From the NCBI GenBank assembly GCA_021605095.1, contig BPLR01000781.1:2414-66413 (forward strand): a stretch of DNA of 64,000 nt. Reading direction: 5' to 3'. A model generated the notes under the pieces. That model saw nothing but the letters and a program-made list of their open reading frames with translations. It did no database searches and was not told where the DNA came from. This DNA comes from Caerostris extrusa (Eukaryota). How positions within the stretch are numbered: position 1 is the stretch's first letter; every line of letters begins with the position of its first letter. Shown here piece after piece: positions 1 to 61,082 of the stretch. The position numbers were made by a program, and so were the translations under genes.

Positions 1-1417
1 ATATCCTTATGTAGGTAATATACTGTTTTCAAATTTATATCTCAATTATTTATACATTTTTGTATGCTTAAAGTTTGTCGACACAAACTTTTTTTTTACA
101 AATTCTTAGTTTAAAAACTAAAATAAAAATAATTTATGAATTTAGGGTTAATTTCCATGTTCTATACCTTTCATACATTTAAAGAAAACTTTTACATGAA
201 GTTTCAAAGCATTTAGAACAGATATATTTTTATTGTGATGTTTTGAATGAATACAAAATGCATAAAAATTCAAATAAGAAAATAATTAAAACCAACTTTT
301 AAATATAAATAAAAACAAATGTATATACATAAAAATGTTATTGAGCTTTTAAATTCTCCTTTTATTAATATAAACACTTATTTATTTGTTTTGTTTTCTT
401 TTAAATAACTTCCAACTTAAAGTACCATTTATCGATTTTTCTTCGACAATATTTAAATCACTCAAATATCTTTTGTTTTTCAAACAACAAAAGTTTTTAA
501 AAATAAAATGTCCTTGATTTTCAACTTGCAACTATTATAATACCTTTTATAAAATTTTAATGTTATCATTATATCAAATAATTGCAGAGTTTACTTCATT
601 TTCACACTTTTCAAAAAATTATTGAAAATTCATCATCTTTTCTTTAAAATTATATTGTCTATATTATATTATCTTGTTAGATCACATTTCATTTAGAATT
701 CTTAATCAAATACAACACATGTTGACAAACTTTAAGCATAGAAAAGTTCAATGTTTTGATTCACAACTTTTCATTCAATATATTTTATTCCAATTCAAAT
801 TCAAACTTAGAAAATAAAAAAAAATATTGATAATCAAATCAGGTAATACTTACATACATTTGATTTATTTCTCAGAAATAATATAAATTTCATACAATAT
901 AATTTTCACAAAAATTTAAAGTAGTACATAAAACAATATTCAGAACATGAGAATTTTATGGTTATGTAGTACAGGCATCGATACACGGCGCCATCCTTTT
1001 ATTGTGGTATATCTTTCGTCTGTGGTGGAAACAAACTTTTACTCCAACGATGAAATTAGTGTAAATAAGAATTCTGCAATTAATTATCGAAATAGCAATA
1101 AAATAGTCATTATATTGTTCGAAAAATGAAGCTACGAATTCTCTAATTGCAGTATTGCAACCCTAAAGAAATTGGCGAAAATTCAGGGTTGCAAGATTGG
1201 CGTCTCCCTCAATGGTAGATTTTTTAAAACGATTGTTGCCACTACATTGGTTTGCCAAAGAAATTTTAAAAATATTTAGGGGTGGACCACCCTTATCACT
1301 TAGGGGTTTAAAAGATTACGACCGATTCGCAGACCTACCAAATATATTCATAGACACCATAAGATGATGATGAATGAAGTGGCATATGATGTGAAGCAAC
1401 CTATAAAAACCAAATCA

Positions 1418-1567
1418 CAACGCTGCCAAAGCCTCTACGATCGTGTTAGACCAGGACCTACGGTTTAAAGTGGATTCCGAACCACTACAAACATCCATGG
1501 CACAGCCGGGACTCGAGAAACCTGTTACCGAGCGCCGAGCGCCCCAGCCACTCGGCCATTCGGCCCA
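1418..1567 (-). mobile_element. tRNA-derived SINE copy (head+core; 3' body diverged/truncated)
   Basis: Reverse complement carries tRNA-like head (gggccgaatggccgagtggctggggcgc...) and the family core ccatggatgtttgtagtggttcggaatccactttaaaccgtaggtcc shared with >15 other copies in window. Confidence 0.6.
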
Positions 1568-2575: not shown

Positions 2576-3230
2576 AATAACAATCTGTGAAATATATCAC
2601 TCAAATTTGACAGCAAAGGCCTGAATGCCCTGAGTGGCTAGCGCTGGGTACCCACAGGTTTAGGATTCGAATCCCGGCGGTGCCCATGGATATTTTGTAG
2701 GGGTTCGGAATCCAATTTAAACCGTAGGTCCCGGTCTAACAGATAGTAGTGCGTTGTCCGCTATTGTTACTCCGCGTCCATGGTTTATCTTCAAGCTACG
2801 CATTTCCTTGGTTATGCTAAGTGAGTAACGTTGGTGCAGCGTTTGCCTTAAGGCATCAAAGACAACTGTCTAAGTGTTTGCCAGCTGCATTAAGAAAAAA
2901 AAAATTGACAGCAGATAAGCAGTGTTATGGGTAGTTATATTGCATGCAATTGGTGTTTTGTACTAATGGGAACAACTTGTCACTCAAATCTGATAGCAGA
3001 TAATCAGTGTCATGGATAAGGATATCATGAAATTAGCAATTGTCTGTGCGACCGTACAAAAAATGATCGAAACAATTATAGATGGAATACTAATGGGAAC
3101 AACCTGTCACTCAAATCTGATAGCAGATAATCAGTGTCATGGATAGTGATATCTTGAAATTAGCGATTGTCTATGCGACCTTACAAAAAATGACCGAAAC
3201 AATTACAGATGGAATATGGACTACACCATG
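2576..3230. repeat. ~128-bp satellite, ~3 tandem units (first unit split by SINE insertion)
   Basis: Units tactaatgggaacaac(t/c)tgtcactcaaatctgatagcagataatcagtgtcatggata(a/g)(g/t)gatatc(a/t)tgaaattagc(a/g)attgtct(g/a)tgcgacc(g/t)tacaaaaaatga(t/c)cgaaacaatta(t/c)agatggaa at 2951-3087 and 3088-3220; partial unit at 2576-2615 + 2905-2950. Confidence 0.65.
2616..2904 (+). mobile_element. tRNA-derived SINE, full length with poly(A) tail and 9-bp TSD ttgacagca
   Basis: tRNA-like head ggcctgaatgccctgagtggctagcgc..ggattcgaatccc (A/B-box-like), conserved core, 3' body, A10 tail 2895-2904; direct repeat ttgacagca at 2607-2615 and 2905-2913; inserted inside a satellite unit. Confidence 0.75.
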
Positions 3231-3570
3231 AACTGTCGCATCGTGATTGATGATATACCAAGGACTAAGAAAATGTCTACTCGAAGAAGTGGGGAAAGCT
3301 GAACCCCCCCCTCTTAAAGGGAGGCTTTTGGAGAAGACGAAGAGAGTTCTGCAACGAGTCGACAAGCAGTGTTGTTTTTTCTCTTTTTCTGAAAGTGCAA
3401 GCCGGAGTATCCTCCTGTTTTACAAAATGAGCCCTTGTGATTTCGTGTATTACGACGTGTGTTAATTGATGTCTGCCGCAGACCACGTGTTTTAAATTCG
3501 TTGTAGACTCGAAAATGTGAAAATCTCCGTCCTTGGAGAAAAATGCACTTTTGAAATTCAAATTTAGATC

Positions 3571-3856
3571 TTTTTTATTTTTATAATGCGATTGGCAATA
3601 GACCGTTATCTTTTATGCCATAAGGGCTGCATAGACATTACTCACTTTGCTCTACACAGGGGCGTGTAACTTGAAGATAAGCCACGGACGCGGAGTAACA
3701 ATGCCCCCGCAACGCTCTACGATCCTATTAGGATCGGGACCTACGGTTTAAAGTGGATTCCGAACCACTACAAACATCCATGGCAACGCCGGGATGCGAA
3801 CCCGATACCTTTGATACCGAGCGCCAGAGCGCTAGCCACTCGGCCATCAGGCCCAT
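3571..3856 (-). mobile_element. tRNA-derived SINE, full length, 10-bp TSD aatttagatc
   Basis: rc begins gggcctgatggccgagtggctagcgctctgg..., core + 3' body matching copy at 2616-2904, A-rich tail (ttttttatttttat on + strand); aatttagatc at 3561-3570 and 3857-3866. Confidence 0.75.
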
Positions 3857-4204
3857 AATTTAGATCTTCAATTTTCTTTTTTGTAAATAATAAATTGTAT
3901 TAAACAAGAGTTCAGTATATATATAATGCTTGTGAATAAAAATTTGGTGTTCCTATGAACCTGAAGGTATCGCTTTTTGAAGTCGTTATAGGTCTAGTGA
4001 GGGAGAAGTTACAGTTTCATTTGACTTTCTGAATCAGCATTACCAAACCAGTTTCTCTTATTATATAGCCTTTATATTAAGATGTGCACGTTAATTTTAC
4101 AATTTCACTGAATTCTTCTTCAATATCATCAATAAGAGAATGAATATAAGTGTCTTCATCTAATTGGAATCCTTTTTTTCTTTCCTTTATGTGCTTTGTT
4201 GGTA

Positions 4205-4500: not shown

Positions 4501-4741
4501 CATTAACGAAAGTAAGTTTTCCAAATTTAATATCTCACGCCCAGAAAATCAGTGCTATGTTTGCTTCATCTTATATATGTGAACAAGTGCTTTCAATTGT
4601 GAACCTTAGAAAGAATTGTTTCAGAAATAGACTGACAGATTAGCATTCAGCTCGTTCCTTAGAATCAGTACATCTCACTTTAAACCTTAATATAAGAACT
4701 TTTAAAAATGAAATCGCAATTTCATTCATCTCATTAACATA

Positions 4742-6227
4742 CACTCATGTCCATAAATTAAGGATAATTCAGAATCACACAGAAATTGAATTCTAAAATA
4801 AAAATTTCACCTGTAGAATTATGACACACATCTTGAAGAAGAATATGCAAATTACAGGAAACCACCAGATGGCGCGGATAGTACGTCACAATGACGAGAG
4901 TGTAAGAGAGGGGTATATAAGGAAAGGTGGCAGAGAAGTAAAATTGTTCCCAAGCTCTTTAAAAGCCTTTCAGTGCAATAACCGCATAGTTATGGCACAA
5001 AGGAAGCATTTGGATGATTTTTTTACGTGGTAGAATTATCCGACGACTGTAATGTGGACGTACCCAGCTGGAAGTATCCGAGGAACTTGGAATCGCCCAG
5101 AGTGTCATCTCCAGGCTTAGGCAACGATTCTAAGATGATGGTAATGTGAGTAGATGTTACAGCACAGGTCGCCCCGAGTTACAACGCCGAATGAGGACCG
5201 GTATTTAGCAGTTACTGCCAAAAGAAACAGACGGAGCACAGCATCAGACCTGTCTCGTCAGCTACCGGTACGACAGTTTCAAGGCAGCCGTGTACAGACG
5301 CTTAAGGCACATTGGTCTATATGCTCGTAGGCCTGTCAGATGTGTTTCACTTTACCGCAACTCACTGTCGCCTGCGATTAACCTGGAGTAGAGAGCATGC
5401 ATTGTGGACACCGCAACAGTGGTCTGGTGTGATGTTTTCCGACGAGTCCAGGTTTAGTTTGCAGTCTGATTCTCGCCGGACTTTCATATGGAGAGCGCCA
5501 GGTACCCGTTACCACCACGAGAACACCATTGAACGACACCGTTACGGTGGTGCAGGATGGCTCGTTTGGGGAGGAATTATTCTTGGTTCCAGAACTGACC
5601 TGCATGTTCAGAGTGTAACGATGACAGGCCATATTTATCGGGATGTCATTCTGGAACAACATGTACGTTTGTTTCGGGGCGCCATGGGTGCTGAATTTCT
5701 GTTTATGGATGACAACGCCCGTCCTCACCGTGCAAACATTGTAGACGAATGCCTTCAATTGGAGGATATCACCCGTATGGATTGGCCAGCATACTCACCG
5801 GACTTGAATCCAATAGAGCATGTGTGGGATATGCTTGGCCGACGAATTGCAGCCCGTCAACCCTCTCCCACCTGTCAACCGGAACTTCGGAGGGCATTGC
5901 TGATGAGTGGTGTAATATTCCCAAGATAAGATTGATAATTTGATACTCAGCATGCCTAGGCGTTGTAAGGGCTGTATTGCATCGTCCGGGAGACTTACAT
6001 ATTAACCATATTAACCATGTTATACTGTTTTTGTAAATAGGTTCTTTTTTTAAATTTGCTCCAGGGAGTAAAAATCGCAATTTTTATTAATTATGTCAAA
6101 CATATAGCATCTTTTTTTGCTCTTTACTTTTGTTTAATAAATAGACTTTACAAATAAGTCAAATTTGTTTTGCTTCTGTCTCTTTCTTTGCCTGAACTTC
6201 ATTATCCTTAATTTATGGACATGAGTG
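4742..6227 (+). mobile_element. Tc1-family (DD34E) DNA transposon, ~1.49 kb, TA target duplication, ~30-bp TIRs
   Basis: TIRs cactcatgtccataaattaagg (4742-) and ccttaatttatggacatgagtg (-6227) each flanked by TA; internal transposase with HTH N-terminus and DDE domain. Confidence 0.8.
5040..5932 (+). pseudogene. Tc1-like transposase, DD34E catalytic domain, one frameshift near 5300
   Basis: N-terminal frame GRTQLEVSEELGIAQSVISRLRQRF..GRPRVTTPNEDRYLAVTAKRNRRSTASDLSRQL; ORF 5312-5929 ...WSREHALWTPQQWSGVMFSDESRFSL...WLVWGGIILGSRTDLHV...FMDDNARPHRA (34 residues) YSPDLNPIEHVWDMLGRRI; C-term SMPRRC..AVLHRPGD after stop. Confidence 0.8.
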
Positions 6228-6280
6228 TATTTAAATTGTAATACTTGTATATTGTTCTTAAAATTTTAGAAAAATGATCT

Positions 6281-6347: not shown

Positions 6348-7261
6348 TAGCATAACTATTATTATCATCAGATTCTCTTCTTAACTCTCTGCTTTCCTCA
6401 TCGCCAATATTCATCTCTTTTTCTGACACAGTTGCCTTGTATACGCTACTTTCATCATTCAATACAGCTATAAAAGCAAATATTATTCAGAACAACTTGA
6501 GAGAGAAAAATTAATCACGTTTGTTCAACATAATATTATATATAAAGAAATTGTAAATATCATAAAGTAATTCATTTGAATGTGATTTTACTTTTTTAGG
6601 GATAAAGAAATACTTTTTTTTCCTTTCAAAAGGAAGGCTTTTAAAATGAAATTCCTATTTGTTTGATAAAAAATGTTTTTCACTTCGATCAGTTCATCTT
6701 TAAAAAACCAGTTGATAATTTTCCCTCCTCTCTTTTATCTCTTTCTAAAAGAGTGTTATTTAGTTGCTATTTTTATGATAACAGTGCTATTAGGCATAAC
6801 AGTGCATTATTTATAGCATGCACAATTTATTAATAGCATTGTGAACATAGTTGAATCAAGACATATAACATAAATGTGCTTCATGAGAAAAATAATTTTA
6901 AATCAAGAATCAGAAATTTTAAAATATTTTAACATTGTGCTCTATTGAAAGTACAATTAATAATCTATTATATATAGTATACAGAACAGTCATATTATAT
7001 ATAGCATACTGGTATTATATATACCAGTCTTTTATATTTTTTTTTTATTGAAATGTTGGACGAGTAAAAAAAGTTCAATGTACATGTTTGTTTCTTGAAT
7101 ATCAAAATATGATAGATTGCATCATAATTTGCCAAATGGCTCTCCAAAACAAGAGTAATTTGATTTATGCCATATTATTTAACGAAACTCAGAAACATTG
7201 TTGAGATTTAGATATACTAATCAGGGTTTATTATGTTTTTACCTAAAATGCTAGCTGATTT

Positions 7262-7452
7262 AAAGACGGGTAAAAACACAGAATAGGGGCTGTTGGAATT
7301 TGGTGTCAAAAAGTCTTTTCGCCAAAATGCGTCAAGTAACGGGTTACAACTGTAAATGAAGTGAATTGTAAATAATAAAAGAAAACCGGTTACCATATTT
7401 GGCGACTTATCACTCAGTTGGCCCCACAGAAATGTCACCAAATTCCAACGAC
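7262..7452. mobile_element. foldback/palindromic MITE-like element (copy 1)
   Basis: Terminal inverted repeats aataggggctgttggaatttggtgtca ... tgtcaccaaattccaacgactcctatt; internal secondary inverted segments (ttcgccaaaat / atttggcgac); second copy at 7862-8056. Confidence 0.5.
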
Positions 7453-7861
7453 TCCTATTTTGCGACTTGGCCTAAAGATATTTAAAAGGATTTGTTTCCT
7501 GAATGTCAAAAAGTGATATATTGTATCTTAATTTGCCAAATTACTCGCCGAAAGCCATAGTAATTAAGTTCTCTTCATATTACTTAGTGCCTAAATTAAA
7601 AATATAAATAGAATTCTTCTATACAGTGTATTACATAATAATCTCGTAATATATTCATATTACTAGCTCCGTATTACAGATTCTTCTCTAACCTGGTATA
7701 TGATTTCTTGATCTCTGATGAAAACGATATTGGCAATATCTTGCATAGTATTCAGTCACATGAGATGGCTTGTCAATTACGCTAATCCGCAATAATGAAA
7801 TAATCTCCTCATGCATTTCTATCATAATAATGTTTTAGGTCTCTTTTGATCGGCCTACAAA

Positions 7862-8056
7862 AATAAACTGCAAAATTGGGTTGTTGGGATTTGGCGTCAA
7901 AAATTCGTTTCACTAAAATACGCCAAGAAAAGAGTTGCTATTGTAACTGAAGTGAATTGCAAACAGTTCTAGATATCCTGTTTACCACATTTGGCGACTT
8001 ATTGCTCAGTTGGCGCCACAAAAAATTGCCAAATCCCACTATTTTGCGATTTGGCC
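7862..8056. mobile_element. foldback/palindromic MITE-like element (copy 2)
   Basis: gggttgttgggatttggcgtcaaaaa ... ttgccaaatcccactattttgcgatttggcc; same architecture as 7262-7452; both sit in a ~600-bp tandemly duplicated unit (7090-7460 / 7490-8060). Confidence 0.5.
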
Positions 8057-8317
8057 AAATAAATACCATGCTTAATTACATTGCTTAAACTTACGAGTTA
8101 TGTTTTACATTTCGCATCTTCAAAAAGTATTATGTAATTACCACGTTCCAGCTAAAATGTGTGTGTATGTTTTCAAATACAATTACCCAGCATATCTTGT
8201 AAAACGCAGTGTAAGCACTACTTTTAAGTACATATTGGAATTAATTAAATAGCACTTTTTTTTTTTAATGTTGCTAGTTTATAAAAACATCAATTTCCTG
8301 TAACAAAGCAAATGTCA

Positions 8318-8552
8318 CCTACTACTACTACTACTACTACACCACACCGCCTAGAGCTGAGTTGCCCTTTCCAGTTTGGGAATGATGTGGGTGAGAAGTC
8401 TGACTGGGCTCCGTGGCGCTCTTACAGTCATATGAGACTGGGGCTTATGGCTTAAAGTGGATTCCGAACCACTACAAACATCCATGGCTCTACAGGGACT
8501 CGAACCCGAAACCTGTGGCACCAAGCGCTGAACACTCGGCAATTCAGGCCCC
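8318..8552 (-). mobile_element. tRNA-derived SINE with (GTA)n 3' tail
   Basis: rc head ggggcctgaattgccgagtgttcagcgcttggtgccacaggtttcgggttcgagtccc, core, then tail appearing as (tac)7 at 8320-8340 on + strand. Confidence 0.7.
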
Positions 8553-8899
8553 GAATTTTTATATAAGAATTATAATATTTAACTTTCCTTTAATACTTGA
8601 AATGTTTGTAAACATTGCAAGGCCCGGGGACATGTGTTTGTGCAAGCAGCGTCATCTGTAAAGCTCTACGGGGAACCCTCGAGTTTAAGCAGAGTTGTAT
8701 GTGTGTGTGAATACAGATAGCGTGGCGAGACCCTCCACGAGTGTGATTTCGGCCAAAATAAAAGCCCACTTTAATAAATAATAAAAGTTCAGCACAAATA
8801 AAAGTCAAAAAAATTTACAGTCCACATTGTTTTCATTTGTTTTAAATTGAAGAAAAGAGCTGTCAAACAGCAATCAAAAATGGGGTAAATTGTATTTTA

Positions 8900-9904
8900 C
8901 TATTCAAGGTGGGAAAATTTTTCTTCTTTTAGTTTGGGGCTTTCTAGATGTCGTTTTTTTTTCTGTGCATCGTTCTCGATTCGACCTTTTCCTTTTCTGC
9001 GCTCGCTTAACACAAGAATCTTGTGCCCGCCTTCTTCGAACACTTGATTTTGGGTTTTGTGTCCGCTTTGCCGCCTCATGTATCTCAAGTTTCCCTTGCG
9101 ATATGCAGCGACATCAGAAGTAGCCTTCATTAGAGCGTGTTCTTTGAGCAGATACGAAAATGCTCTCAAAACCGCCTGTGTCAGCTCTTCGTCCCCCATG
9201 TCAGCTTTTTTTTTATCCGACATATTTCTGAAGCTATCTCTGCCAGATGCTCAGCGATCTCGATTAAAAGGAGTCCCAGGTACTTTGGAGGCTTCGAGTC
9301 GATGTGGGACAACGGATCCACTTCTAAAAAAGCCTCTTGATGGAAGAGGTGAAACGTTCCGCGAATTCCGGTTTAGAAAAACCATCACCCCACAAACTCC
9401 TTTTCTTCAGTTTTAAATCAAGTAAGCTGTTTTCGTATAGAGCTAAATACCTATTCGCTTCGTTGACAGCTGCATTGAAAACGTTCTTTTCAAAATATTG
9501 GGGTAAGATGTTTTTTAAATGCAGAGGTCGGAGCTCTTCGTTTTGACCATAAGTTACAGCTGCTTTGGCGGTAATTGCCTTTCCGAATTGATATATATGT
9601 AAAGCTAACGTATCCCTGGCTTTTCTGTCAAATATTAAATTCTGTAGGCATTTTGAGCTCAGGTTTGCAACTCCGGATTTGAAAGGGTTAGTGCTTCTTC
9701 TAACATCAACATTTTGGCGGGTTTCTTTTTCTTTGCTTTCACTTTTAATGCACCATTGCCGCTATACGTCATACAACCACTCTGTAATAAAGCTAATTGC
9801 TTAAAAGCTTCTGATAAAGCGTGCCTTTTCAAACCTCCTTCAAAATATGTGGCAATTACTTTATGAGCGATAAGTTGTATGGTGTGTCCATTTATTTTAT
9901 TCAC
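8900..9904 (-). pseudogene. broken minus-strand ORF series of unknown family (possible transposon-derived gene remnant)
   Basis: ORFs 9659-9904 (MNKINGHTIQLIAHKVIATYFEGGLKRHALSEAFKQLALLQSGCMTYSG...) and 8900-9223 (MSDKKKADMGDEELTQAVLRAFSYLLKEHALMKATSDVAAYRKGNLRYMRRQSGHKTQNQVFEEGGHKILVLSERRKGKGRIENDAQKKKRHLESPKLKEEK...) joined by frameshifted stretch (..YEKLLDLKLKKRSLWGDGFSKPEFAERFTSSIKRLF..); no family recognised. Confidence 0.3.
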
Positions 9905-10889
9905 AGCATTATATTCTTCTTCAATGAGTGATTATTGTTGAATTTACTTGGTTCAGCAACTTTGAAAGTAGTTCAAGGAAATTGTTTTCTACTTTTAAAG
10001 CCAAGACCTGATCACTAATTAAATTCTCCAGGCCTGTTTTGTAACTAATATCTTTAGTGTAAACCATTATTAATCTTCGGGAAGATGATTTGAATTTGTA
10101 AAAAGTGATTAATAATTTGAAGTGAAGATGATTCGAATTTCTAACCTAAATTTTGTTACATTTCATTTTGATATAATTAATAACAAAACAAAACATGTAA
10201 GGGAAAATAAAAAGGATGTTCAAAACATGATGCCAAAAAAATTACCATTACCGAAATTTAATAAAAATCTTGTTAAAAAACCATACAATTTGATATTTAA
10301 AAATTCTGCCTTCAACTGAGATTCAAATCATTACCTGATTATCTGGATCAGTGTGTGTAGTTTCTTTTAGATAAAACTTTCCATTTATGAATACTCCTCT
10401 TCTTTCAGAAAAACCTCTACCCTTCTTTCTACGTACAAAACCAGTTTTGATTTTACAGTTTAAACCAATTTTTTAACTGGCTTAATACAAATCAAATAGC
10501 ATTATAGTAATTTTCCACCACATTAACTTATGATGAACGTTCACAACAATTACTTAATTTCATAGGAAGCTTTTCAAGAGCTAGTCTTCAAGAATTTCAA
10601 TGTGAATCATAGAACTTGCTTCATTAATATAAGTTTTATAAAATCAGGCTCAGACGAAGGCAAATATATCTGAGATTATTTCAATATTTATTCTTCATAT
10701 GCGCATATTTGAGAACGTGAAAAACCATAAATATTTTATTGTTTACAACTTAGTTCTTAGTACTCTTCTATTGCTGTTGAGAAATTAATAAGATTTCTAT
10801 TTTTGAAATCATATAGTAAGGAAGAATAAGGTTAAAGTTCAATCAATATTTTCATTTTATGAAGCTGATAATTTTTTAGCTTATTGAAA

Positions 10890-11049
10890 GGTTTTGTTTG
10901 GTTTGTTGCTCTCCGGTCATTTTTTGCACACTTTGGACTAATTATACCGGGACCTACAAGTTAACGTGGATTTCGAACCACCAAAAACATCCATACCACC
11001 GTCAGGATTCGAATCTGAAGCCTGTGGTACCAAATGGCTATCAGGCAAC
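10890..11049 (-). mobile_element. SINE subfamily B (shared core, distinct 3' body gcacactttgg.ctaatta; head internally deleted)
   Basis: gttgctctccggtcattttttgcacactttggactaattataccgggacctacaagttaacgtggatttcgaaccaccaaaaacatcc...; same subfamily at 12510-12673, 54614-54776(+), 57519-57674, 60905-61082. Confidence 0.65.
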
Positions 11050-11457
11050 CAGCTTACTGAAGGAACAAATCATGAAATTAAAATCTTGAACAAATTAGAA
11101 ATAAAATGATCTTCACTCCATAGCTTTGGGAAATATTGTTTGAAGGACACATTATGTCCTTTTCAGTGCTCCTCCAATTAATGTATTCTTTTCAGTATGA
11201 ATTAGAGTGGTTGTGCATGTATTAAAGGGTTTGGACAAGAATACGGCATTAGATCCATGAAGAGCAACTTCTTTTGGTGAGAGAGCATTATTATGTATAG
11301 TAGCCAAGCATAGATTTTTCAACATCCGAGCAAACATTACAGCATATGACCATCTAAGTCCATTTTCACAAAAATAAACCTGAATAACATTAAATATATT
11401 ATTTCATGTGCATCTTTTAACGATAGGATAGCATTATATAATATTTTTAATCTAGCA

Positions 11458-11949
11458 CATTTTTTTTTTTTTCTTCAATGGTGCAACAGCCTCATGGTAG
11501 ATTAAGGCCATCTGCCTACTGGCAGATTTCGGGATAGGAGATGTCGGTACTTACGTATTAACGCCACCGCAGCTACAGATTTGGTGGTTTTTAAGTGACG
11601 CCAATCTACACTTAAAATTTTTGTGACAAATCATAAAAAATATAAAATCAAAACACTTTATTTAAAAACAAAGTAGTCAATCGGATTTCGGTGGAAAATG
11701 GGCCGATACAGAGTTTAACATAGATTCAAAACAGTTTCTATTTTGGCGCATTGGCAGCTCTTTATTGGCGCGTTAGCACAACTTCTGCTGCGGTGGCGTT
11801 AATAAGTAAGTACCGAGATGTCTTTTTACGGATAAGGTTGCCAGCCCTAAGTTCAACAGTTATATCAGACCGAGACCTACGGTTTAAAATGAATTCCGAA
11901 CCACTACAAGCATCCATGGCTCCACTGGGACCCGAATCCGACACCGTGG
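11458..11949 (-). mobile_element. SINE subfamily C copy (5'-truncated head) interrupted by MITE insertion; part of tandem duplicated unit 11295-11950
   Basis: poly-T (rc poly-A tail) 11461-11474, body ttcttcaatggtgcaacagcctcatggtagattaaggcc...ctactggcagatttcgggataggagatgtc | insertion | tttttacggataagg...gacctacggtttaaaatgaattccgaaccactacaagcatccatgg; paralogous uninterrupted unit at 11975-12373. Confidence 0.6.
11545..11814. mobile_element. 270-bp MITE with 28-bp TIRs and 8-bp TSD gagatgtc (hAT- or P-like), nested in SINE
   Basis: TIR ggtacttacgtattaacgccaccgcagc (11545-11572) vs rc of 11787-11814 (27/28 match); gagatgtc at 11537-11544 and 11815-11822; empty site gggatatgagatgtttcc in paralog at ~12225. 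Confidence 0.75.
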
Positions 11950-12142
11950 ATTAGCATGTATAATAGCCAATGTATATATAATATGTATAATAGCATAGAT
12001 TTTTCAACATCCATGCAAGCTTTACAGCAAATAATCTAACTAACTCCTTTTTCACACAAATAAACTAGAATAGTATTAAATGTATTCTCTCATATGCATC
12101 TTTTAATGATAGGATAGCACAATATAATATTTCCATCTAGCA

Positions 12143-12373
12143 AATTCTTTTTCTTCTTCATTGGTGCAACAGCCTCATGGTGGACTAAGGCCCTCCCGCC
12201 TACTGGTAGATTTCGGGATATGAGATGTTTCCTTTTATGGATAGGGTTGTGAGCCCTACATTCAACAGTCATATTAGACCGGGACCTAAGGTTTAAAGAG
12301 GATTCGAACCACTACAAGCATCCATGGACTCGAATCCGAAAAATATGGCACCAAACGCTAGTCGCTCGGCCAT
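12143..12373 (-). mobile_element. SINE subfamily C copy (uninterrupted; empty-site paralog of 11458-11949)
   Basis: caaattctttttcttcttcattggtgcaacagcctcatggtggactaaggccc...gggacctaaggtttaaagaggattcgaaccactacaagcatccatgg...gctcggccatcaggcccc. Confidence 0.6.
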
Positions 12374-12509
12374 CAGGCCCCATTTAACACATTGCCATAG
12401 AAATATTTTGCAATAACAAAAAATTGCGAAATTGGAAGCATTCGTGTTTTCATCCATCTCTATCGAACAGAAAGAATTTTTTCTTTTTAAATTCTTTTAA
12501 TTACTGTTT

Positions 12510-12673
12510 CGGTTTGTCGCTCCACGGTCATTTTGTGCACACTTTAGGTTAATTAGACTGGGACCTACAGTTTAACGTGGATTCCAAACCACTAACAAAC
12601 ATACATGCCACTGCCAGGATTCGAACCTGAAGCCTGTAGTACCAAAGGCCAGAGCGCTAGCCAATTGGCCATC
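12510..12673 (-). mobile_element. SINE subfamily B copy
   Basis: ggtttgtcgctccacggtcattttgtgcacactttaggttaattagactgggacctacagtttaacgtggattccaaaccactaacaaacatacatgccactgccaggattcgaacctgaagcctgtagtaccaaaggccagagcgctagccaattggccatcaggcaa. Confidence 0.7.
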
Positions 12674-13082
12674 AGGCAATTTCAATTACTGTAGATTCAA
12701 TGTCGTTAGATATGTTCTCCGAGAAATTATATTTTATTTGAATCAGAATACTGTAAATTTTTCTGGCATGGTCTTACTGAACAGCTGGTCATGACAGTGC
12801 AGCTTCTTCAATATAAGATATCAAATGTTTAGCTATTGTAGGATTTTTATCGCTTTTAGCAATACGATAATTTTTTCTGTACAATGCTTCAACGCCCATT
12901 GTATGCAGATATTACAAAAATAATGTAAGATTTGGGCACTTTGATAATCACTAAAAAAACTAGTGTTTTATGTTTACAAATTGGAATCTTTAAATGGCCT
13001 ATTAATAGAGATGTTTTTGGAACCTTTGGACAAAATTTCCACACAAACAGCTCACAGTTTTATCTCGTGTTATTGAAAATTC

Positions 13083-13332
13083 GGGCCTGATGGCTAGTGG
13101 CAAGAGCTCTGTCGCTCGATACCACAGGTTTTGAGTTCGAGTCGCGGCAGTGCTATGGGTGTTTGTTGTTGGCTCGAATCTACTTTAAATCGTAGGTCCC
13201 GATCTAATATGACTGTAGAGCGTTGGGTGGACAACCTTAAACAGTAAAAAGAAAACATCTGTCTCAAAATCTGCCAATAAGCAGAAGGTTTTGGCCCACC
13301 ATAAGGCTGTTACGCCAATGAAAAAGTTATTG
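13083..13332 (+). mobile_element. SINE subfamily C copy (+)
   Basis: gggcctgatggctagtggcaagagctctgtcgctcgataccacaggttttgagttcgagtcgcggc..core..gatctaatatgactgtagagcgttgggtggacaacc...ggcccaccataaggctgttacgccaatgaaaaag matches rc of units at 11458-11949/12143-12373. Confidence 0.6.
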
Positions 13333-14003
13333 AAAATCCATATGACAAGCATCCATCGCAATATTTTTTTTCTTTTTTTTTGACAAACACTTTTCTTGTG
13401 CTTTTCTTACATGTTACTCTCTTTAATTTGTAAGTCATCAGACTGCTTCGAAGTACTTTGCAGCTTCCAATTCAAACTGTCTGATTTTCAATGCTATTTG
13501 CATCTTTCTTAAGAGTCAGTTTTCAACTAATTATTAATTTCGTGGCACAAACAAGTATCAACAAAAATTCCCTTCAAAACACTAACATAATAGATAACAA
13601 TCGTAATTTAAGAACTCTTTAAAAAAGAAAGATATTAGGCTATTCAATTGTCACTGAATAAAACACTAAAATGATGGCCTGCTTTTAAATGTAATGCCAA
13701 AAGACGATTCGAAATTATCCTAGAATAATTACTAGACACGAAAAGAACAAAAGAATACATGTTTAATCACCCAACATAATGGCTAGTGGACAGCGGCTGT
13801 TAGCAATCAGTTATAAATCACATACACATATCCTAGATTGAATAACTGATAGAACCATTGATCTGAATAGCTGATTCTAGTAGGGATATGATGAAAATAA
13901 GTAAGGAATAACTCCAGTTGCAAATGTACACTTTACAAATATTGTTAAAAAACAAACTTTAAAATATTATTAAACGTAAGTTTTTTTTTTTCTTTCTCTA
14001 AAT

Positions 14004-39960: not shown

Positions 39961-40618
39961 ATTGAAACGCTAGAACTTTGCTGATGAGACAATGAGTTTT
40001 TTCTTATTGTTTTCTTTTTACCTGTGTGTGTCTTGCACTGTTTTGATGCCGTAAGAATTTGTCATTTTCTCTTACCATTGGAAATAATGATAAAAAAAAA
40101 CAAGTATTATAAAAAAAAAACAATTTTTAAAGTCAATAATCATTTTTTAAAGTCAAACTTTTTTTTTTTCACTCTATTGCAGAAGTCCTTTATAAATAAT
40201 TTTCATTCATTTTTTTTTAAATTTATGTGGCGCCATCTATTGGTAGATATATGCAACTTAAATCTAAAAAAACTAAAATTAATCAATTAACTTTAATTAC
40301 TGAATTAATATTTGAGAAAACTGTATTAACATCAAGTGTCATCCACTACAAGTTTAAAAAAATGTATTTGAACTTGAGTGGATGAATAAAAAGTATTTTA
40401 TGAACGATTGGAAATTTGAACAAGATATATATAGGGAGAGTGTGAGCTAATAGAAGGAATTGAAAAAAACACGCCACACTTGAATTAGTGAGATGATTCT
40501 TCATTTATTTACGAATTCTAGATCACCAGAGTGAGACAGAGATGGGGGTCTTTAGGGAAAGGGAATTTATTATGGAAGTGATCGATTTTCTTACGTCAAT
40601 TATCGTAAGGAAGAGCTA

Positions 40619-40920
40619 TCGTTATTTTCTTTTCTTTTTTTTTTCTGATGCAGCTGACAAAGACGTAGATAGCTGTATTGGATGCCTTAAGGCAAGAACT
40701 GCACAGACGTTAATCACTTTGCGCGTGGAGGGGGCGCATGTAACTCGAAAACAAGCCACGGACGCGGAATAACAATGCCCCCGCAACGTTCTACGATCAT
40801 ATTAGACCGGGACCTACGGTTTAAAGTGGATTCTGAACCACTACAAACATCCATGGCACCGCCGAGACTCGAACCCGAAGCCTGTGGTACCGAGCGCCAG
40901 TCACTCGACCTTTCAGGCCC
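40619..40920 (-). mobile_element. tRNA-derived SINE, full length, 12-bp TSD gctatcgttatt
   Basis: Core + 3' body (gccacggacgcggaataacaatgcccccgcaacg..), rc head ends ggcc at 40920; gctatcgttatt at 40607-40618 and 40923-40934. Confidence 0.75.
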
Positions 40921-41349
40921 GTGCTATCGTTATTATTACCCATAAAATTATGGGTGTTGTTTAGAGGAGTGAAATTTTCGAGTCTCGGACGTCCTTCAAC
41001 GTTTCCTATTCGTAATTTTTTTTTTTTTTAATTTCTTTACAAGCTATAGATTTATTATAAATTTCTTTCACGAGCTTTCTTATATATAATATTTATTTAA
41101 ATTTTTTTCACCAACAAATAATTATGTAATTAAATAATTACAACATACAATTGTTCTAAAAAGATCATCTGGGGTAAGCAACAAACATTTTATTTCAAAG
41201 TGAACATGAGATTTTTTCAAGAAACGAAAATCCTTTGGAATTCTATATTTTATTTTTTAGGATTTTTGTTATGCATTTTGGTAATGGTAAAATTGTGTCA
41301 TTGGTTATTGATACCAAGAAATTGGGTTCAATTTTAATGAATAAGTATT

Positions 41350-44300
41350 AAATAATTATAATGTGTGAACATGATGTTGAGGTTAGAGGTCACATTGGAT
41401 ACCGAATTGGATTGAGTTTTTGCGAACTTGACATCGACTTGAGTTATCATTTCAAAAGATATTGGATGTTTTTTTCAAAACGGCTGCCTTTGATTGGTGA
41501 TATATTTTGTCTTAAGCGATTTTTATTTGAGTTGAAAGTTGATATTTGGTCTTGATTCTTGAGGTTCTTCGAAGTATATTATTTCGGTGATTGAATTTTG
41601 CCTAGATACTTACAATCTTGTGACTTTAGTTGAACTATTTTCATTGTATATGGTGTGATGAGTATTTTTGCTGGTGTTGCAAGCATGATGCAGATGGAAG
41701 TGACCGACGGTTGTTATTCCCCGGAGGGAGTACCATTGCTGGGAGCTGAAGCGAATGTGTCGACAAATGTGCCAAAGAAAGCTTCCCCAGAGGATACGTG
41801 TCGGCAGTTAGTTACTGCAAAGAAGGAAATGAAGATTCTGGACGATATTATTGCCACAACCAAGAACTCTGACCTTCAAAGTGATTATGATCAGATGAAC
41901 GCTAATCTGATGCAAAAGCGCCAACTGTTGGCGAAATGGGCGAGTCGAGTTCCTTGTCCTCTTGCCAATTGTAATATTCATCATAGTAATGTTAAAAAAT
42001 CTAAAAGACCTGTTGACGAACTAACCAATCAAAATGATAAAACTAATGCATCCTAAGAGTTTAAAACTCCTAATAAAAACGTATTAAAAAGCAAACTTCA
42101 TCCCTAGCACTCAAAATTCTGTTAAGACTATTAACAAATTTGATACCTTGAGCACTGATGATAATGTTGAAGTAGAGGAACCCGTCCAAATTGTGAGAAA
42201 AATGCCTCCTATTATGGTTAAGCCGAAATCAAACTTAAACGAAATGCTTAAACGTTTCGATCAAGAATTTGATGGTAATGTGAATGTTAAATTAGCAGGG
42301 GAGATGTTGAAAATGTTCCCTAACAATGAAGATCAACATAGGGAAATTACTCGTTATCTTAATCAGCATGAAATTGAGTATTTCGTAATAACGCCAAAAT
42401 TTCTTCGACCCTCAAAGCGGTTATTAAAGGCCTTCCAAAGAACACCCCCACTGAGGAAATTAAGGAAGCGCTTGCTGAAAAGACTTCATCGTAGAAAAAG
42501 TAGTACAATTAACCAGGGCTAAGGATAAACAACCCCTACCAATTTTTCAGGTTACTTTCGCTCGGTCAAATAAAAATAATGAAATCTTTCAGCTCACCAA
42601 ATTACTCTATCTATCCATTGTTGTTGAAAAGTATAACAAACGTCCTCTCACCCTACAATGTTACAAATGTAACTTTTTTCATCACAGTTCGAGTAATTGT
42701 GGTTTTAAAGCTAGATGCCTTAAATGTGGAGAGGAACATTCTCATAAGGACTGTCAACTTCAAGAAAAACTAGAAATACCCAAATGCATCAACTGTGGGG
42801 AGCCAGGACACATTGCTGCCTGGCGGGGATGTGCGAAATTTCACAAGATTAAGACTATTTCCACCAAATACGCTACCATTCCAAAATTCACCCCTGCACG
42901 ACAGGTCACACCTAACTTCTCCTATGCCGCGGCTGCTAAGAATATTACTCCACAACCAATCAATACTAACTCTAATTTTACTTTTATTATTCTTACGTAG
43001 AGCAATTGCCACATATAAAAATGACTGTTGGGATCGCAAACTGCAAACCGTCAATGTTGAAGATGGATCCATGTGGAATTTCTGTAAAAATTTTAGGAAA
43101 AAAAGGACTAAAATAACTCTCTCCAAACTCCGCAATCCACTGTTACAACAGCCACTGATAAAGCTGAAGTTTTAGCTACGACTTTACAGGATCAATTTAA
43201 AGAAAATGAAACTAACAACACTAACATTGTAACTGAAGTAGAAAACACCATTACTTCCTTTCTCGTCCAACCTCACAATAACGATGATTTTCCCAACACT
43301 AAAGCTTCCTTCATAATAAACTGCATCACTAACCTTAAAATCGGTAAAACCCCTAGCTTAGAACGTATTACTAACAAAATGCTCAAAAATATTCCTTTTA
43401 AAATAGTTATACAAATTTGCAAAATAACCGATGATATCCTTTCTACTAATCCTTTCCTAAGAATTGGAAGACTGCTCGCATTCTTCCAATCCTTAAACCC
43501 GGCAAAGACCCATCCTCTCCTAACAGCTACAGACTGATCTCTACTCTCCTGCCTAAGTAAACTAATTGAACTCGTAATTGTTAACATCCTAAATGAAGAA
43601 TCTGATAAACTTAACATTTTAATTTCGCAGCAATTCGGGTTTACCAAAAACTTGTCAACTACGCATCAACTTTATAATCTCACAGAAAATATTTCAGAAG
43701 GGTTTTCAGGAAATTCGACACTGCAGTAGTTTTCCTGGATGTCGCTAAGGCGTTCGATCGTGTTTGGATCAATGGTTTAATATATAAAATGATAAAATAT
43801 CAATATCCTACCTACTTAATCCGTACCATACACAATTATCTTACAAACAGAAATTTTGTTGTTTCTGTAGATAACACTCAAAAACTGTCATATCCTTGCC
43901 GGTGTTCCTCAGGGCTCGATCTTGGGACCATTTTTGTTTAACAGATACACCAACGACATCCCACAAGATCACAAAATTAAATTAACACTTTACGCGGACG
44001 ATACTGCTATTATCACACAGGGGCGAAACATAAACATAATCAAGAAAAACTTACAAAACTACATACACACGCTTGAAAATGGGCTCATTAACTGGAAAAT
44101 AAAAACTTAATGTCTCGAAAACTGAAGCAGTGCTATTCACCAGGAAAAATAAACTAATTCCCCCTAACATAACTATTTATAATGCTAATATTTCCTGGTC
44201 CAAAGAAACTAAATACCTTGGCATAATACTTGACAGCAAATTAATATATAAATCGCATATTAATTATCTACTCACTAAATTCAATAATCAATTAAGAAAA

Positions 44301-48879: not shown

Positions 48880-48968
48880 TAACCTGGCCTTTGGTACCAC
48901 AGGCTTCAGGTTCGAATCTTGTCGGTGGCAAGGGATGTTTGTCAGTGGTCTGGAATCCACGTTAAATT
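48880..48968 (+). mobile_element. 5'-truncated SINE fragment
   Basis: aacctggcctttggtaccacaggcttcaggttcgaatcttgtcggtggcaagggatgtttgtcagtggtctggaatccacgttaaattg. Confidence 0.55.
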
Positions 48969-48989
48969 GAAACACCTCATAACAATAAA

Positions 48990-51481: not shown

Positions 51482-51849
<368 letters not shown>

Positions 51850-53992: not shown

Positions 53993-54613
53993 CTCTAGAA
54001 GAATTAAGGAAAAATTCAAAAAGAATTCGAGCAGATATGCAGTAGACTTCAACTAGGAGAGGGATATAGTTTGTGCTGAGCATCTAACGGAAAAATTCAT
54101 TGACGCGTAGGTAAATCGAGTTGAAAAAGTTAATAAGAATATTACTTGACACGCAGATCTGTTGATATTAATTGCCATCGAGGCTTCATTAAATTATTGA
54201 AGTCATTATTGTGAAAAAAGATTGATGAAAGTTGATTGAGGATAAAATATGTTGATTATAAATAAAAGTGTTTAGTGTGCAGGTTAGGCAATTAGATTGT
54301 AACTTTTTTTTTTTTTTTATTTCCAATGGCAGATTATGAACAGTTACAGCAAAAAAAGGAACAACGAAAAAAAAAAAAAAAAAAAGAAAAAGAAGAAGAA
54401 GAATTAAGAAAGAAGCCTCAAAATAATACAACAAACATGTTGAAACAGAGTTCATTAATTTAACAATAAAGCCAAGTTGCAGATCTTTTAGCCACTAAAA
54501 AGTGTTACCAGGTGCACCACGGGGAGGTAGATCTTCTGCGCATCCATTAGATTGTAACTGGGTGTGGTTATGTTGAGATAGTTGAGGCACAGGTTGGAAA
54601 ACTCAGTTTTAAG

Positions 54614-54776
54614 CAGCCTGATGGCCAAATGCCTAGCGCTTTGGCCTTTGGTACCACAGACTTCAGAATCGAATCCTGGCTTTGGCATGATGTTTGTGTT
54701 TCGGAATACCGGTCTAATTAGCCTAAAGTGTGCAGAAAATGACAGTAGAACTGCAAACCAAACCAAATCACAGCTT
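54614..54776 (+). mobile_element. SINE subfamily B copy (+)
   Basis: gcctgatggccaaatgcctagcgctttggcctttggtaccacagacttcagaatcgaatcctggc...ggtctaattagcctaaagtgtgcagaaaatgacag...caaaccaaacc. Confidence 0.65.
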
Positions 54777-57479: not shown

Positions 57480-57518
57480 GTTAGATATTATTCCATATAA
57501 TTATTTCTGTGGGCTTGG

Positions 57519-57674
57519 TTTGTCGGTCTACTGCCATTTCACGCACACGTTAGGCTAATTAGACAGGGGCCAACAGTTTAACGTGGATTCCAAACCACTC
57601 TCAAACATACATGCCACTAACAGGATTCGAACCTGAAGCACCAAAGGCCGGAGAACTAGCAAATTGGCCATCAG
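57519..57674 (-). mobile_element. SINE subfamily B copy
   Basis: ggtttgtcggtctactgccatttcacgcacacgttaggctaattagacaggggccaacagtttaacgtggattccaaaccactctcaaacatacatgccactaacaggattcgaacctgaagcaccaaaggccggagaactagcaaattggccatcaggcc. Confidence 0.65.
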
Positions 57675-57763
57675 GCCGCCTGTCTGAATGGAGAAGATTG
57701 ATGAAATGAAGAGAAATACAAGGAATAGAAGAATCGAAAGTTATTAAAAGTCCTCCTCATTGT

Positions 57764-57975
57764 GGGCCTGAATGGCCAAGTGGCTAGCGCTTTGGCACTC
57801 GGTACCACAGATTTCAGGTTGAAGTCCCACCGGTGCCCTTGATGTTTGTAGTGGTTCGGAATTCACTTTAAATCGTAGGTCCCGATCTAAAAGGATCGTG
57901 GAGAGTGACGTATTAAAATAGGAAAGCGAACTGTTCCTATATAGTCCTTGTTGCTTCGTATACTCATTCATTCAA
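57764..57975 (+). mobile_element. tRNA-derived SINE (+), 12-bp TSD tcctcctc(a/g)ttg
   Basis: gggcctgaatggccaagtggctagcgctttggcactcggtaccacagatttcaggttgaagtccc..core..gatctaaaaggatcgtggagagtgacg; tcctcctcattg 57751-57762, tcctcctcgttg 57976-57987. Confidence 0.7.
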
Positions 57976-58793
57976 TCCTCCTCGTTGGGTGTTATCAGGT
58001 CAATCCGTTCTATAGATTAATTTTCCAGATGAGTGGAACCGATCTTGATAATTGAGAAAGATTTCTAGTATAAAGAAAATAAATTAAGCAAATAGATTTA
58101 TTAGCTCTGACGTCGCGTATTTTCCATTTTAAATTGTGTAATGGAGCATTTATTGAACATGAAAACAAAAATTAAGAGGAAACCATAGAAAAATTAATAA
58201 ATAAAAAAAAAATGGTGTCTAAACTTCTTATTTAGCTCTCTGAACTGATTGTTAAGCTGACCACTATGTTGTTTAAATCTTGCAGAATTTCGAACCCCAA
58301 TTTTCCTACTTTTAATTTTTTTTATCTTTAAGAGTACTTATTAGTAGTGTACTGATGGGGGTGATAGTTTCTTCATCACTTGGCTGAGTGAGGTAAGGGA
58401 CACAGTAATGTTTCCAGTCAAACTTTTAATAGTTAGAAAGATTATAGGCGAAAGATTTCTTTGGTTATTACCTGAGTTTCAGTGGCTTGCTGCTTTAATA
58501 TTGTAATGAGTTCATCTTTAATGTTACCAGAATTTACAACAAGGGTAGATTTAAGTTTAGAAGAAAAGGAATCCTCTTACTGAAACGAATATGATATAAC
58601 CTCCAAGATACTATAAAGGAAAGACGATTAAGAGTTTTAAATTTTAAACAATGTTCCAATGTTCCTTAGTAGTATCCATGGTTTTGTGTTCCGCATTGCA
58701 ATTAACTCATTTTGGAATTGTGGTCGAGCATTAGTCCACTCGATGTTGGGCGCTGCAAAACTCACGAACAACGGGGTTTTTACAAATTGTTGT

Positions 58794-59024
58794 TGTTGCT
58801 GTTGTATCCCTCATGGAAGGAGGGAAGAGGGGTCAGGCTTCTGTTCTGATGGAGCACCCATAGGTAGAAGTCTGACTTCTTCTCCGTAACGCTCTTACAG
58901 TCATAGGAGACCGGGACCTACGGCTTAAAGTGGATTCCGTACCACTACAAACATCCATTGCACCGCCGGGACTCGAACCCTAAACCGAGCGACAGAGCGT
59001 TAGACACTCGGCCATTCAGGCCTC
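58794..59024 (-). mobile_element. tRNA-derived SINE with (TTG)n-type tail, 13-bp perfect TSD ttacaaattgttg
   Basis: rc head ggcctgaatggccgagtgtctaacgctctgtcgc..., core; ttacaaattgttg at 58781-58793 and 59025-59037; simple-repeat tail ttgttgttgctgttg adjacent. Confidence 0.75.
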
Positions 59025-60904
59025 TTACAAATTGTTGGTTGAGTATATGAAAAACAATGGCGAGGTCTATAAAAAAAAATTATCTTTATAAAGAATAATA
59101 ATCGTACATGTTCTGCAACATGCAAGCCGTAATCGTACACATAGTTCCAAAACTGTAACCAACACCGAAGTGGCGAGATTAGATTTATTTCCTTTGCCGG
59201 AAAATTGGCGCAATTCAGTTACTGTAGGATTATTCTTTTGCGAGTTCAGCTAAGGACATATCGGTAGGGATGTTGTGAAATAAAAAAAAAAAAAAAGAAG
59301 CTATTTTTCGGGATAATGTAATCAGGATAATTTTTGGTGATATTGTAATCAGGATTTCTGAGGATTGCTTTCACATCGGCCAATCTCAAAATCATCAGTG
59401 GAAATAATTTATTTGCCTTTATTTTGAACGATATATTTTCTTTGGGAATCTTGGGGGCATTTTTTACTTTGAGTTTTTATTCTAGCAATAGTGTAAGACC
59501 GTGCGCCGTATTGGAATGTTATCTGTAAATTCGCAAGAATGTCGCGGTGAATCGTAAAAATTGATATCAGCATCGGAAGAATATTCCATTAAATTTGAAT
59601 TTATAATGTTAGCCGCCATAGAAAAACACACCTGTATAAAATGTAAACTTTCTTGAAACTACATGGATAAATAAACGAAAACTAACAAGTTGCAGTAAAA
59701 GTAGAATGTGCTAAAAAAGAAATATAGATGACTTACCCAAAAAGAATACTAAAACAAAAAGAAACAGACAAAAAAAAAAAAAATAAATAAAATACAACCA
59801 GAATAAAAATAAAGTAATCCTACGAGTCACAAGAAACATCTGTGGCCTCCCCAACTACTTTTTAATTTTTAACAATAGGTTAATTCCTGTCTATGATGAA
59901 ATCTGTCACATACCTCCTCATGAATATTGACTTGAGGATGATAATGTAGATTAATATGGAGAGCCTTAGTAGCGTATCACCGTCCAGCCTCATCATTACT
60001 AGATGCTGTAACACAGAGGTGGTCGCATGCCCTTTGAGTTAAAAAGAATTAAAAATTAAGTAAATGCCCTTTTTTAATATAATTATAATTGAATATTTAA
60101 CTTTAATTAGAAACAAATTTTTGAAAAAGAAAAAGAATTAAATGAAGTGTAGATGTTTGATAAAAATAGTTGCATAATCGAAAAAATAAAACAGAAATAT
60201 GGAATTAATTTTAAATATTTAGAACAGTACGAGTTCTGTTACTATTTTTTCCGGTAAGAATTATCATAATCGTAATTTTGTAGTGTATTTAAAAGTGGGT
60301 TATTGATGTCTTGCATATTATTATAGAAATATATATTATGCGATATTAGTAGAAACTTTATGAACAAACTGTCTTAAACTTGGAATCCAGAAAATACGTC
60401 TAATATCGTCATTATGAAAGCACCAGGGTGAATTTGTTAACATCTTAAAAAGTATTTTTCTCAAGTCTTTTGTATGCTTTTAAAATTGTACGTGTAATAG
60501 AACCTCCAAAATTGGGCTTGTGTAAAGTAGTTTGTAAATCAATCCAAACTCTATTAAAAGCCTTGCCATATACAGAAAAATTACATATATCCAAAAACCA
60601 ATATACATATACAAAACATATAACACATATCCAAACACCAATTTCACATATCCAAACAAATCTTTCAGAAATAGTTTCTATGAGATTATATAGTTGATGA
60701 AAAAGTAAGTTTTTTTGATAAATCCAAATTACCGTTTGATGAAAAAGTTATTTTGATTTGACTCACTTTTAAGAAGATTCAGGATGACATTTTCAATTAG
60801 TTAACCAATAGAAGAAGATAAAGAAATTGGTCTGTAATTAATAGGAGAAGTACCATCTTTTGCAAGCTGTCTCTGGCTGTTTTCCAAAAACTTAGATAAC
60901 TAGT

Positions 60905-61082
60905 TTAATTTAGTTCTGACTCTGCGGTCATTTTTTGCACACTTTGGGCTAATTATACCAGGACCTATAGTTAAACATTTATTCCGAACCACCAACAAAC
61001 ATCCATACCACCGCCAGAATTCGAACTTGAAGCCCGTGGTTCCAACGGCCAGAGCACTAGTCCATTGATCATCAGGCAGCTA
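60905..61082 (-). mobile_element. SINE subfamily B copy
   Basis: ctgactctgcggtcattttttgcacactttgggctaattataccaggacctatagttaaacatttattccgaaccaccaacaaacatccataccaccgccagaattcgaacttgaagcccgtggttccaacggccagagcactagtccattgatcatcaggcagc. Confidence 0.65.

Follow-up and report, generated by a model that had tools for sequence, protein, structure and literature searches.

A probable SINE family with a tRNA-like head, a conserved 54-nt core and alternative 3' modules in Caerostris extrusa

Analysis of a 64,000-nt stretch of Caerostris extrusa DNA (hereafter, the window) showed the presence of 16 copies of a SINE head and core, located on both strands and occupying 5.3% of the window. A SINE family composed of a tRNA-like head, a 54-nt core and at least five alternative 3' modules is the best explanation of these copies as a whole, and we regard it as highly probable. 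The SINE identity, which had been proposed in an earlier reading of the letters without database searches (hereafter, the sequence-only reading), is supported by the A and B boxes, the short length of the copies, target-site duplications (TSDs) of 9-13 bp and poly(A) or microsatellite tails. Conservation is higher in the core than in the head by identity to the consensus, also when only non-CpG sites are counted, and pairwise comparison of the modules places the core above both the head and the bodies.

Copies, target-site duplications and 3' modules

A BLAST search with the element flagged by the sequence-only reading (2616-2904) found 15 copies of the 5' part, and self-BLAST of the window added the copy at 54613-54769, in agreement with the earlier count of more than 15 copies with a tRNA-like head and a near-invariant core in 64 kb. 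The 47-mer core as originally given occurs four times with at most 3 mismatches, two of these occurrences being exact, while none is expected from shuffled sequences. The full core is present in 14 of the 16 copies, with 80-98% identity to the consensus; the remaining two are the fragment 48883-48969 and the copy 54613-54769, which has an internal core deletion. The copies are 155-296 nt long, with class lengths of ~172 (B), 213 (D), 232 (E), 245 (C) and 285-296 nt (A). The sequence of the window has no N and is rich in AT; its GC content of 0.30 fits the range of 28.6-33.6% reported for spiders (PMC8693713). The copies, with the parts of the flagged copy given separately, are as follows:

2616..2904 (+): class A, flagged copy, 289 nt; TSD TTGACAGCA at 2607-2615 / 2905-2913
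2616-2685 (+): head of the flagged copy, with an A-box-like motif at 2626-2637 and a B box at 2663-2674
2686-2740 (+): core of the flagged copy, with a second B-box-like motif, GGTTCGGAATCC, at 2702-2713
2741-2891 (+): class A body of the flagged copy, followed by an A-tail at 2892-2904
3573..3855 (-): class A, exact 47-mer core, poly(A)-like tail; perfect 12-bp TSD AAGATCTAAATT at 3857-3868 / 3561-3572
40626..40921 (-): class A, poly(A) tail; perfect 12-bp TSD AATAACGATAGC at 40923-40934 / 40615-40626
12506..12680 (-): class B, short body with terminal GACAAACCGAAAC; TSD ACAGTAATTGAAA / ACAGTAATTAAAA (12/13) at 12680-12692 / 12495-12507
10891..11044 (-): class B, 5' part of the head lost or diverged
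57509..57680 (-): class B
60903..61074 (-): class B, 5' end short by a few nucleotides
54613..54769 (+): class B, internal core deletion; missed by the first BLAST search, found by self-BLAST
13083..13325 (+): class C, RTE-type 3' end by alignment; perfect 12-bp TSD GTTATTGAAAAT at 13069-13080 / 13326-13337
12147..12381 (-): class C; 3' end GAGGGCCTTAGTCCACCATGAGGCTGTTGCACCAATGAAGAAG aligns to the 3' terminus of RTE-34_LMi
11460..11949 (-): class C, 5'-truncated and MITE-split; SINE parts 11815-11949 and 11460-11545
1363..1567 (-): class D, exact 47-mer core, (CATT/CAT)n tail; only a weak 7-bp TSD
57763..57975 (+): class D, (CATT)n tail; TSD TCCTCCTCATTG / TCCTCCTCGTTG (11/12) at 57751-57762 / 57976-57987
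8319..8552 (-): class E1, (GTA)7 tail; no TSD recognised
58790..59024 (-): class E2, (CAA)n tail; perfect 13-bp TSD CAACAATTTGTAA at 59025-59037 / 58780-58792
[quoted passage not shown]

TSDs of 9-13 bp, differing in sequence, were found at 7 of the 16 copies, all five classes being represented, and a direct-repeat search around each copy showed that they directly adjoin the poly(A) or microsatellite tails. The five TSDs listed by the sequence-only reading are all present, with the one given at 40607 lying about 8 nt off (40615-40626 is correct), and two more were found, at 12680-12692 / 12495-12507 (class B) and 13069-13080 / 13326-13337 (class C). Since each class contains at least one copy whose TSD adjoins its own tail, the 3' bodies belong to the inserted unit; the possibility that the 3' regions of classes B and C are unrelated flanking repeats was checked, and these bodies lie inside the TSDs. 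The flagged copy is located in a tandem repeat with a unit of ~75 bp (TCACTCAAATYTGAYAGCAGATAAKCAGTGTYATGG..., window positions 2905-3000). An apparent second TSD of this copy, 2597-2610 / 2980-2993, was rejected as spurious because the insertion target is this tandem repeat.

The 3' ends are represented by at least five tail types: poly(A) in class A, (CAAAC)n-like in class B, GAA/A-rich in class C, (CATT/CAT)n in class D and (GTA)7 or (CAA)n in classes E1 and E2, respectively. All bodies (A, B and C) and tails (poly(A), (GTA)n and (CAA)n) described by the sequence-only reading are present, but the number of 3' classes is at least five instead of three. Classes E1 and E2 are alike for ~50 nt past the core and differ thereafter.

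Two of the class C copies are not independent insertions, the copy 11460-11949 being a local tandem duplicate of the copy 12147-12381 together with its flank. The tandem duplication, 11289-12381 (-), contains the class C SINE and ~230 bp of 3' flank twice (12381..11979 and 11951..11289). An insertion of 269 bp inside a class C copy, 11546-11814, is MITE-like and has 28-bp terminal inverted repeats, GGTACTTACGTATTAACGCCACCGCAGC, with one mismatch.

Other elements of the window include a Tc1-like DNA transposon, 4740-6229 (+), which is bounded by terminal inverted repeats of 29 bp (4740-4768 / 6201-6229) and in which 207 aa of the transposase are open (5306-5926). The protein search with this open reading frame gave thousands of matches, and all of the best belong to spiders, with 93-96% identity for Araneus ventricosus, 89-93% for Trichonephila clavipes and 81-84% for Stegodyphus mimosarum. 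Compared as DNA, this transposon shares 95.6% identity with a copy from Araneus ventricosus, 91-93% with those from Trichonephila and 87% with one from Stegodyphus; horizontal transfer could be another reason for so close a match between families. Together with a second repeat shared with Trichonephila (40274-40468, see below), these matches by themselves point to an araneoid spider as the probable host, in place of an insect (Lepidoptera or Polyneoptera) considered earlier from likeness to Bm1 and Lm1; this assignment draws on transposons, which are able to move horizontally. A histone H2B-like gene, 51483-51849 (+), has an intact, arthropod-like run of residues to the stop codon, the N-terminal tail being out of frame with the ATG, and no canonical histone 3' stem-loop was found downstream; it may represent a variant or a pseudogene. 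At 46880-46924 (+), the model of the histone 3' UTR stem-loop gave a weak match (23 bits versus a gathering threshold of 34, E=0.047), with no histone open reading frame adjoining it. Another weak match, to an HDV-like ribozyme, at 54480-54544 (-), ~70 bp upstream of the SINE at 54613, is at chance level (25.6 bits versus a gathering threshold of 44, E=1.4). An internally repeated region, 62049-63630, encodes arrays of C2H2 zinc fingers (open reading frame 62443-62904 and others); the protein search with the zinc-finger open reading frame found no relatives at E<=1e-10.

Head and core in the window and in a second species

The head, ~70 nt long, contains an A box, TGGCCGAGTGG, and a B box, GGTTCGAGTCC, which were identified by motif match and are in register across the copies. 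No tRNA match was obtained with Rfam, either at the gathering threshold and E<=5 for the window or at E<=10 for 171 nt at a well-preserved copy, nor with ARAGORN at default settings at the heads; no other Rfam family was found at the SINE copies. A relaxed tRNA fold of the head, suggested by the sequence-only reading as a way to the parental tRNA, gave inconsistent identities in ARAGORN. [quoted passage not shown] Judged by these alignments, the head is tRNA-related in the usual loose sense applied to SINEs.

The core, ATGGATGTTTGTAGTGGTTCGGAATCCACTTTAAACCGTAGGTCCCGGTCTAAT, is located directly 3' of the head. The shared conserved block described by the sequence-only reading is therefore borne out, with a length of 54 nt instead of ~47. 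About 20 more nucleotides (CTAATATGAYYGTAGAGCG; also written ATGAYYGTAGAGCG) are shared past the core in every class but B, after which the sequences diverge. Identity to the consensus per copy is 80-98% for the core, in every full copy, and 73-92% for the head. For 16 full-length copies, 12 from the window and 4 from a second species, identity to the consensus is 91% for the core versus 77% for the head, and 93% versus 79% at non-CpG sites; a Fisher test on these identities counts related copies as independent, so that its p-value is inflated.

Pairwise comparison of the modules gave the same order. Within classes, the core is 15-20 points above head and body alike; in the class A pair A_3855 and A_40921, for example, identity is 0.74 for the head, 0.95 for the core and 0.73 for the body. 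Between classes, the mean identity is 0.82 for the core and 0.64 for the head. The bodies, which are not CpG-rich, are 0.54-0.74 identical in the same pairs in which the core is 0.73-0.95 identical, and are as diverged as the head. Several copies have perfect TSDs of 12-13 bp, which indicates little decay since insertion; the difference in heads and bodies therefore probably predates insertion, much of it having arisen between source elements while the core was kept.

RNAalifold analysis of 19 cores predicted a hairpin GTGG/CCAC extended by GTTTG/TAAAC, with compensatory changes at none of its 13 pairs. The loop and stem of the predicted hairpin include GGTTCGGAATCC, which is a B box apart from an additional G; the canonical GGTTCGAATCC is present in one copy.

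Metagenome contigs were scanned by exact pattern with a degenerate 31-mer of the core, which gave six loci (L001-L006), three of them distinct. Five different SINE copies were found in these AT-rich eukaryotic contigs of a second species. In comparison with the window consensus, the core of the second-species copies is 89-94% identical and the head 73-79%, which suggests that the core outlasts head divergence between species, yet remains attached to the same head lineage: judged from the alignments, the heads of both species are all homologous variants of one head. The joining of the core to differing tails recurs in the second species, in which a class B tail and a different type, represented by L003, were found.

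Contig L002 contains an LTR-retrotransposon-like element, 7032-10678 (+), with gag (372 aa) and pol (866 aa, open to the contig end) and with protease and integrase motifs; accordingly, these 'metagenome' contigs are eukaryotic host DNA. An AT-rich repeat of ~190 bp is present in a single copy in the window (40274-40468) and, with 87% identity, in L002 (2285-2475), as well as in Trichonephila, in three copies with 85-86% identity (L015 4786-4924 and 7553-7737; L011 21845-21923). In both the window and L002, the repeat lies 115-150 bp downstream of a SINE of the same orientation, but the SINE class and TSD differ. An orthologous locus was considered for this block and rejected, the repeat being also present in Trichonephila, and its nearness to the SINE is taken as coincidence.

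No copy was found with the core profile in a spider sample of 129 kb, taken around Tc1-like transposase genes from Araneus, Trichonephila and Stegodyphus, which indicates that the family is not a common one in these three genomes; it may be lineage-restricted. Viral contigs gave no match with three patterns; for contigs of prokaryote genomes, the first scan gave no match and the second scan three chance matches, in GC-rich bacterial MAGs. A full-text literature search with k-mers of the core, head, tail and Bm1 returned nothing relevant.

Partner LINEs, known SINE domains and alternative explanations

LINE-derived tails, which had been proposed for the different 3' bodies, are suggested for class C. 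The 3' end of class C is identical at 33 of 43 positions to the last 43 nt of Locusta RTE-34_LMi (z=6.3, none of 200 shuffles being as good), and the tails of Talua and Sbg8 can likewise be aligned with it. Cockroach Sbg8 shares the RTE-34_LMi 3' end and is reported as RTE-tailed (PMC9191728 supplement). By comparison with the locust RTE, class C thus appears to carry an RTE-type terminus. Talua and Sbg8 have the same tail type as class C (GAGGGCC..TAG.CC....GGCTGT.GC.CCA and a simple repeat), but the heads and middle bodies of Talua, Taluc and Sbg8 differ from those described here, in which the RTE tail occurs in class C only.

The partner LINEs themselves were not found: neither the window nor L001-L006 nor the spider samples contain a LINE with a 3' end matching the SINEs, matching tails are likewise absent from the spider samples, and a tblastx search of the window and L001-L006 with RTE-34_LMi detected no sequence coding for an RTE. 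Within the window, the 3' bodies match SINE copies only. A degenerate Jockey-like LINE is located at 41650-44610 (+) and consists of gag-like open reading frames with CCHC knuckles, followed by frameshifted fragments of reverse transcriptase; its 3' end matches no SINE tail, and its last open reading frame (44130-44603) has no relatives in the protein search. Further fragments resembling reverse transcriptase are present near 45.9-46.2 kb and at 61-62 kb.

The window is rich in DNA transposons, such as the Tc1-like element 4740-6229 and the MITE 11546-11814, so that the copies themselves might be taken for MITEs or other DNA-transposon derivatives; tRNA genes or pseudogenes might also be considered. 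Such an origin is hardly credible and is refuted by the anatomy of the copies, which have no terminal inverted repeats, vary in the length (9-13 bp) and sequence of their TSDs, end in poly(A) or simple repeats and are not recognised as tRNA by ARAGORN or Rfam. Another explanation accepts a SINE family but denies that the core is under any special constraint: one young lineage would have changed its tail several times, and its head would only seem more diverged, being CpG-rich, indel-prone and harder to align. The homology of all heads agrees with this, as do the share of CpG positions (16 of 73 in the head versus 6 of 54 in the core), a 9-nt indel polymorphism in the head and the lack of covariation in the predicted hairpin. 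Nevertheless, the difference persists at non-CpG sites (93% versus 79%), the bodies, despite having no CpG enrichment, show as much divergence as the head (0.54-0.74, with 0.73-0.95 for the core), the perfect 12-13 bp TSDs of several copies indicate little decay, and the pattern is repeated between species. We therefore consider a core free of special constraint quite improbable.

A less remote alternative, although still an unlikely one, is that the core is a diverged copy of a named SINE domain (Nin/Deu, V, CORE or Meta) and that the family falls within an existing superfamily. Nin, Inv, Pln, V and CORE domains are reported from arthropods (PMC5804259, PMC4824008): Nin in tick; V in termite, mantis and firebrat; CORE in crustaceans and horseshoe crab (PMC5804259, PMC5786205, PMC4824008). 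Talub is reported as V-containing and Taluc as containing Inv and Pln (PMC5804259); cockroach Sbg6 resembles Taluc. Positions 122-190 of Talub align with the 3' body that characterises the L003 type in the second species (z=7.6 locally and z=10.9 for the whole element), which means that the core can adjoin a Talub-like body in that species, while no element of the window has this body. The beginning of the core, TGGGTGTTTGTAGTGG, resembles by eye TGGGATTTGTGGTGG of Talub, located just past the Talub head, but the profile search gives no support to this likeness, which was rejected; between Talub and the core, no significant similarity was found.

The profile HMM of the core and hairpin, built from the core and the next 22 nt of 19 copies and run with all filters off, matched none of eight termite and cockroach SINEs, namely, Talua, Talub (V), Taluc and Sbg6 (Inv+Pln), Talud, Sbg1, Sbg2 and Sbg8. 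The comparison with known domains proposed by the sequence-only reading was thus negative for the V representative, Talub, and for the Inv/Pln representatives, Taluc and Sbg6; for the V domain, this covers one curated representative and an approximate DANA sequence. Approximate sequences of MIR, a fish Deu-like SINE, DANA and Bm1 likewise gave no match to the core. The only match, 14 nt in an approximate sequence of Locusta Lm1 (E=1.3), was dropped. On balance, this is a SINE family of an ordinary kind, in which tails have been swapped and the core is constrained, and it is probably a new member of that kind.

Conserved-domain superfamilies are defined by a domain common to SINE families with different heads, across orders or phyla. 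Similar to CORE-, V-, Deu/Nin-, Meta-, Ceph- and MESC-SINEs, the family described here has a tRNA-related head, a better-conserved central block and interchangeable, putatively LINE-derived tails, and, as in those superfamilies, the core has been retained in more than one species, at least two being documented. Unlike these superfamilies, its heads are all homologous and its core is documented in two species only. Of the superfamily of CORE/Deu/V type suggested by the sequence-only reading, the SINE nature, the swapping of tails and the constrained core are retained, whereas independent heads and wide taxonomic spread were not found; since the heads are all homologous, a superfamily on the scale of CORE, V or Deu is unsupported, and one head and core module with swapped tails is left.

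[quoted passage not shown] In HaSE1/HaSE2 and PxSE1/PxSE2, a tRNA-related region of 70-74 nt is followed by a 'conserved central domain' of 44-62 nt, and different 3' regions, one of them RTE-derived, occur in one genome (PMC3272025, PMC8010984, PMC5786205). The likeness, based on comparison by description, consists in the shared module of head and central domain with different 3' regions. The lepidopteran families belong to another host group, and related families show no strong conservation of their domain (Kojima, PMC5786205), whereas the core is the best-conserved part here.

Proposed mechanism and significance

In the proposed mechanism, Pol III would transcribe the whole unit, and a partner LINE, belonging to the RTE clade in the case of class C, would supply the reverse transcriptase that recognises the 3' module of the transcript. 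Target-primed reverse transcription would insert the copy, with a target-site duplication of 9-13 bp at its flanks. New subfamilies would arise when the head and core module gains a different LINE-derived tail via template switching or recombination, and selection on active source copies would keep the core. Our best guess for the core, guided by the predicted hairpin and its B-box-like motif, is an auxiliary role in Pol III/TFIIIC binding or in the stability of the RNA or RNP.

More tentatively, the 54-nt core with its second B-box-like motif might represent an undescribed arachnid SINE domain, kept by selection in active sources while heads drift and tails are exchanged, and might mark a large unannotated SINE fraction of spider genomes; we consider this possible, though short of probable.

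SINEs account for ~0.08% in the Argiope annotation (PMC7788392), compared with 5.3% of the window here, and 20-33% of spider genomes is assigned to unclassified repeats (PMC7788392, PMC8693713). These values leave room for an unannotated family, with modest value for annotation. If the family is absent from Repbase and Dfam, part of the 'unclassified' repeats of spiders would move into SINEs, and the family would supply insertion markers for spider phylogeny. The understanding of how SINEs work would be unchanged, and the family would provide one more case for why some SINE bodies stay conserved while their heads and tails turn over.
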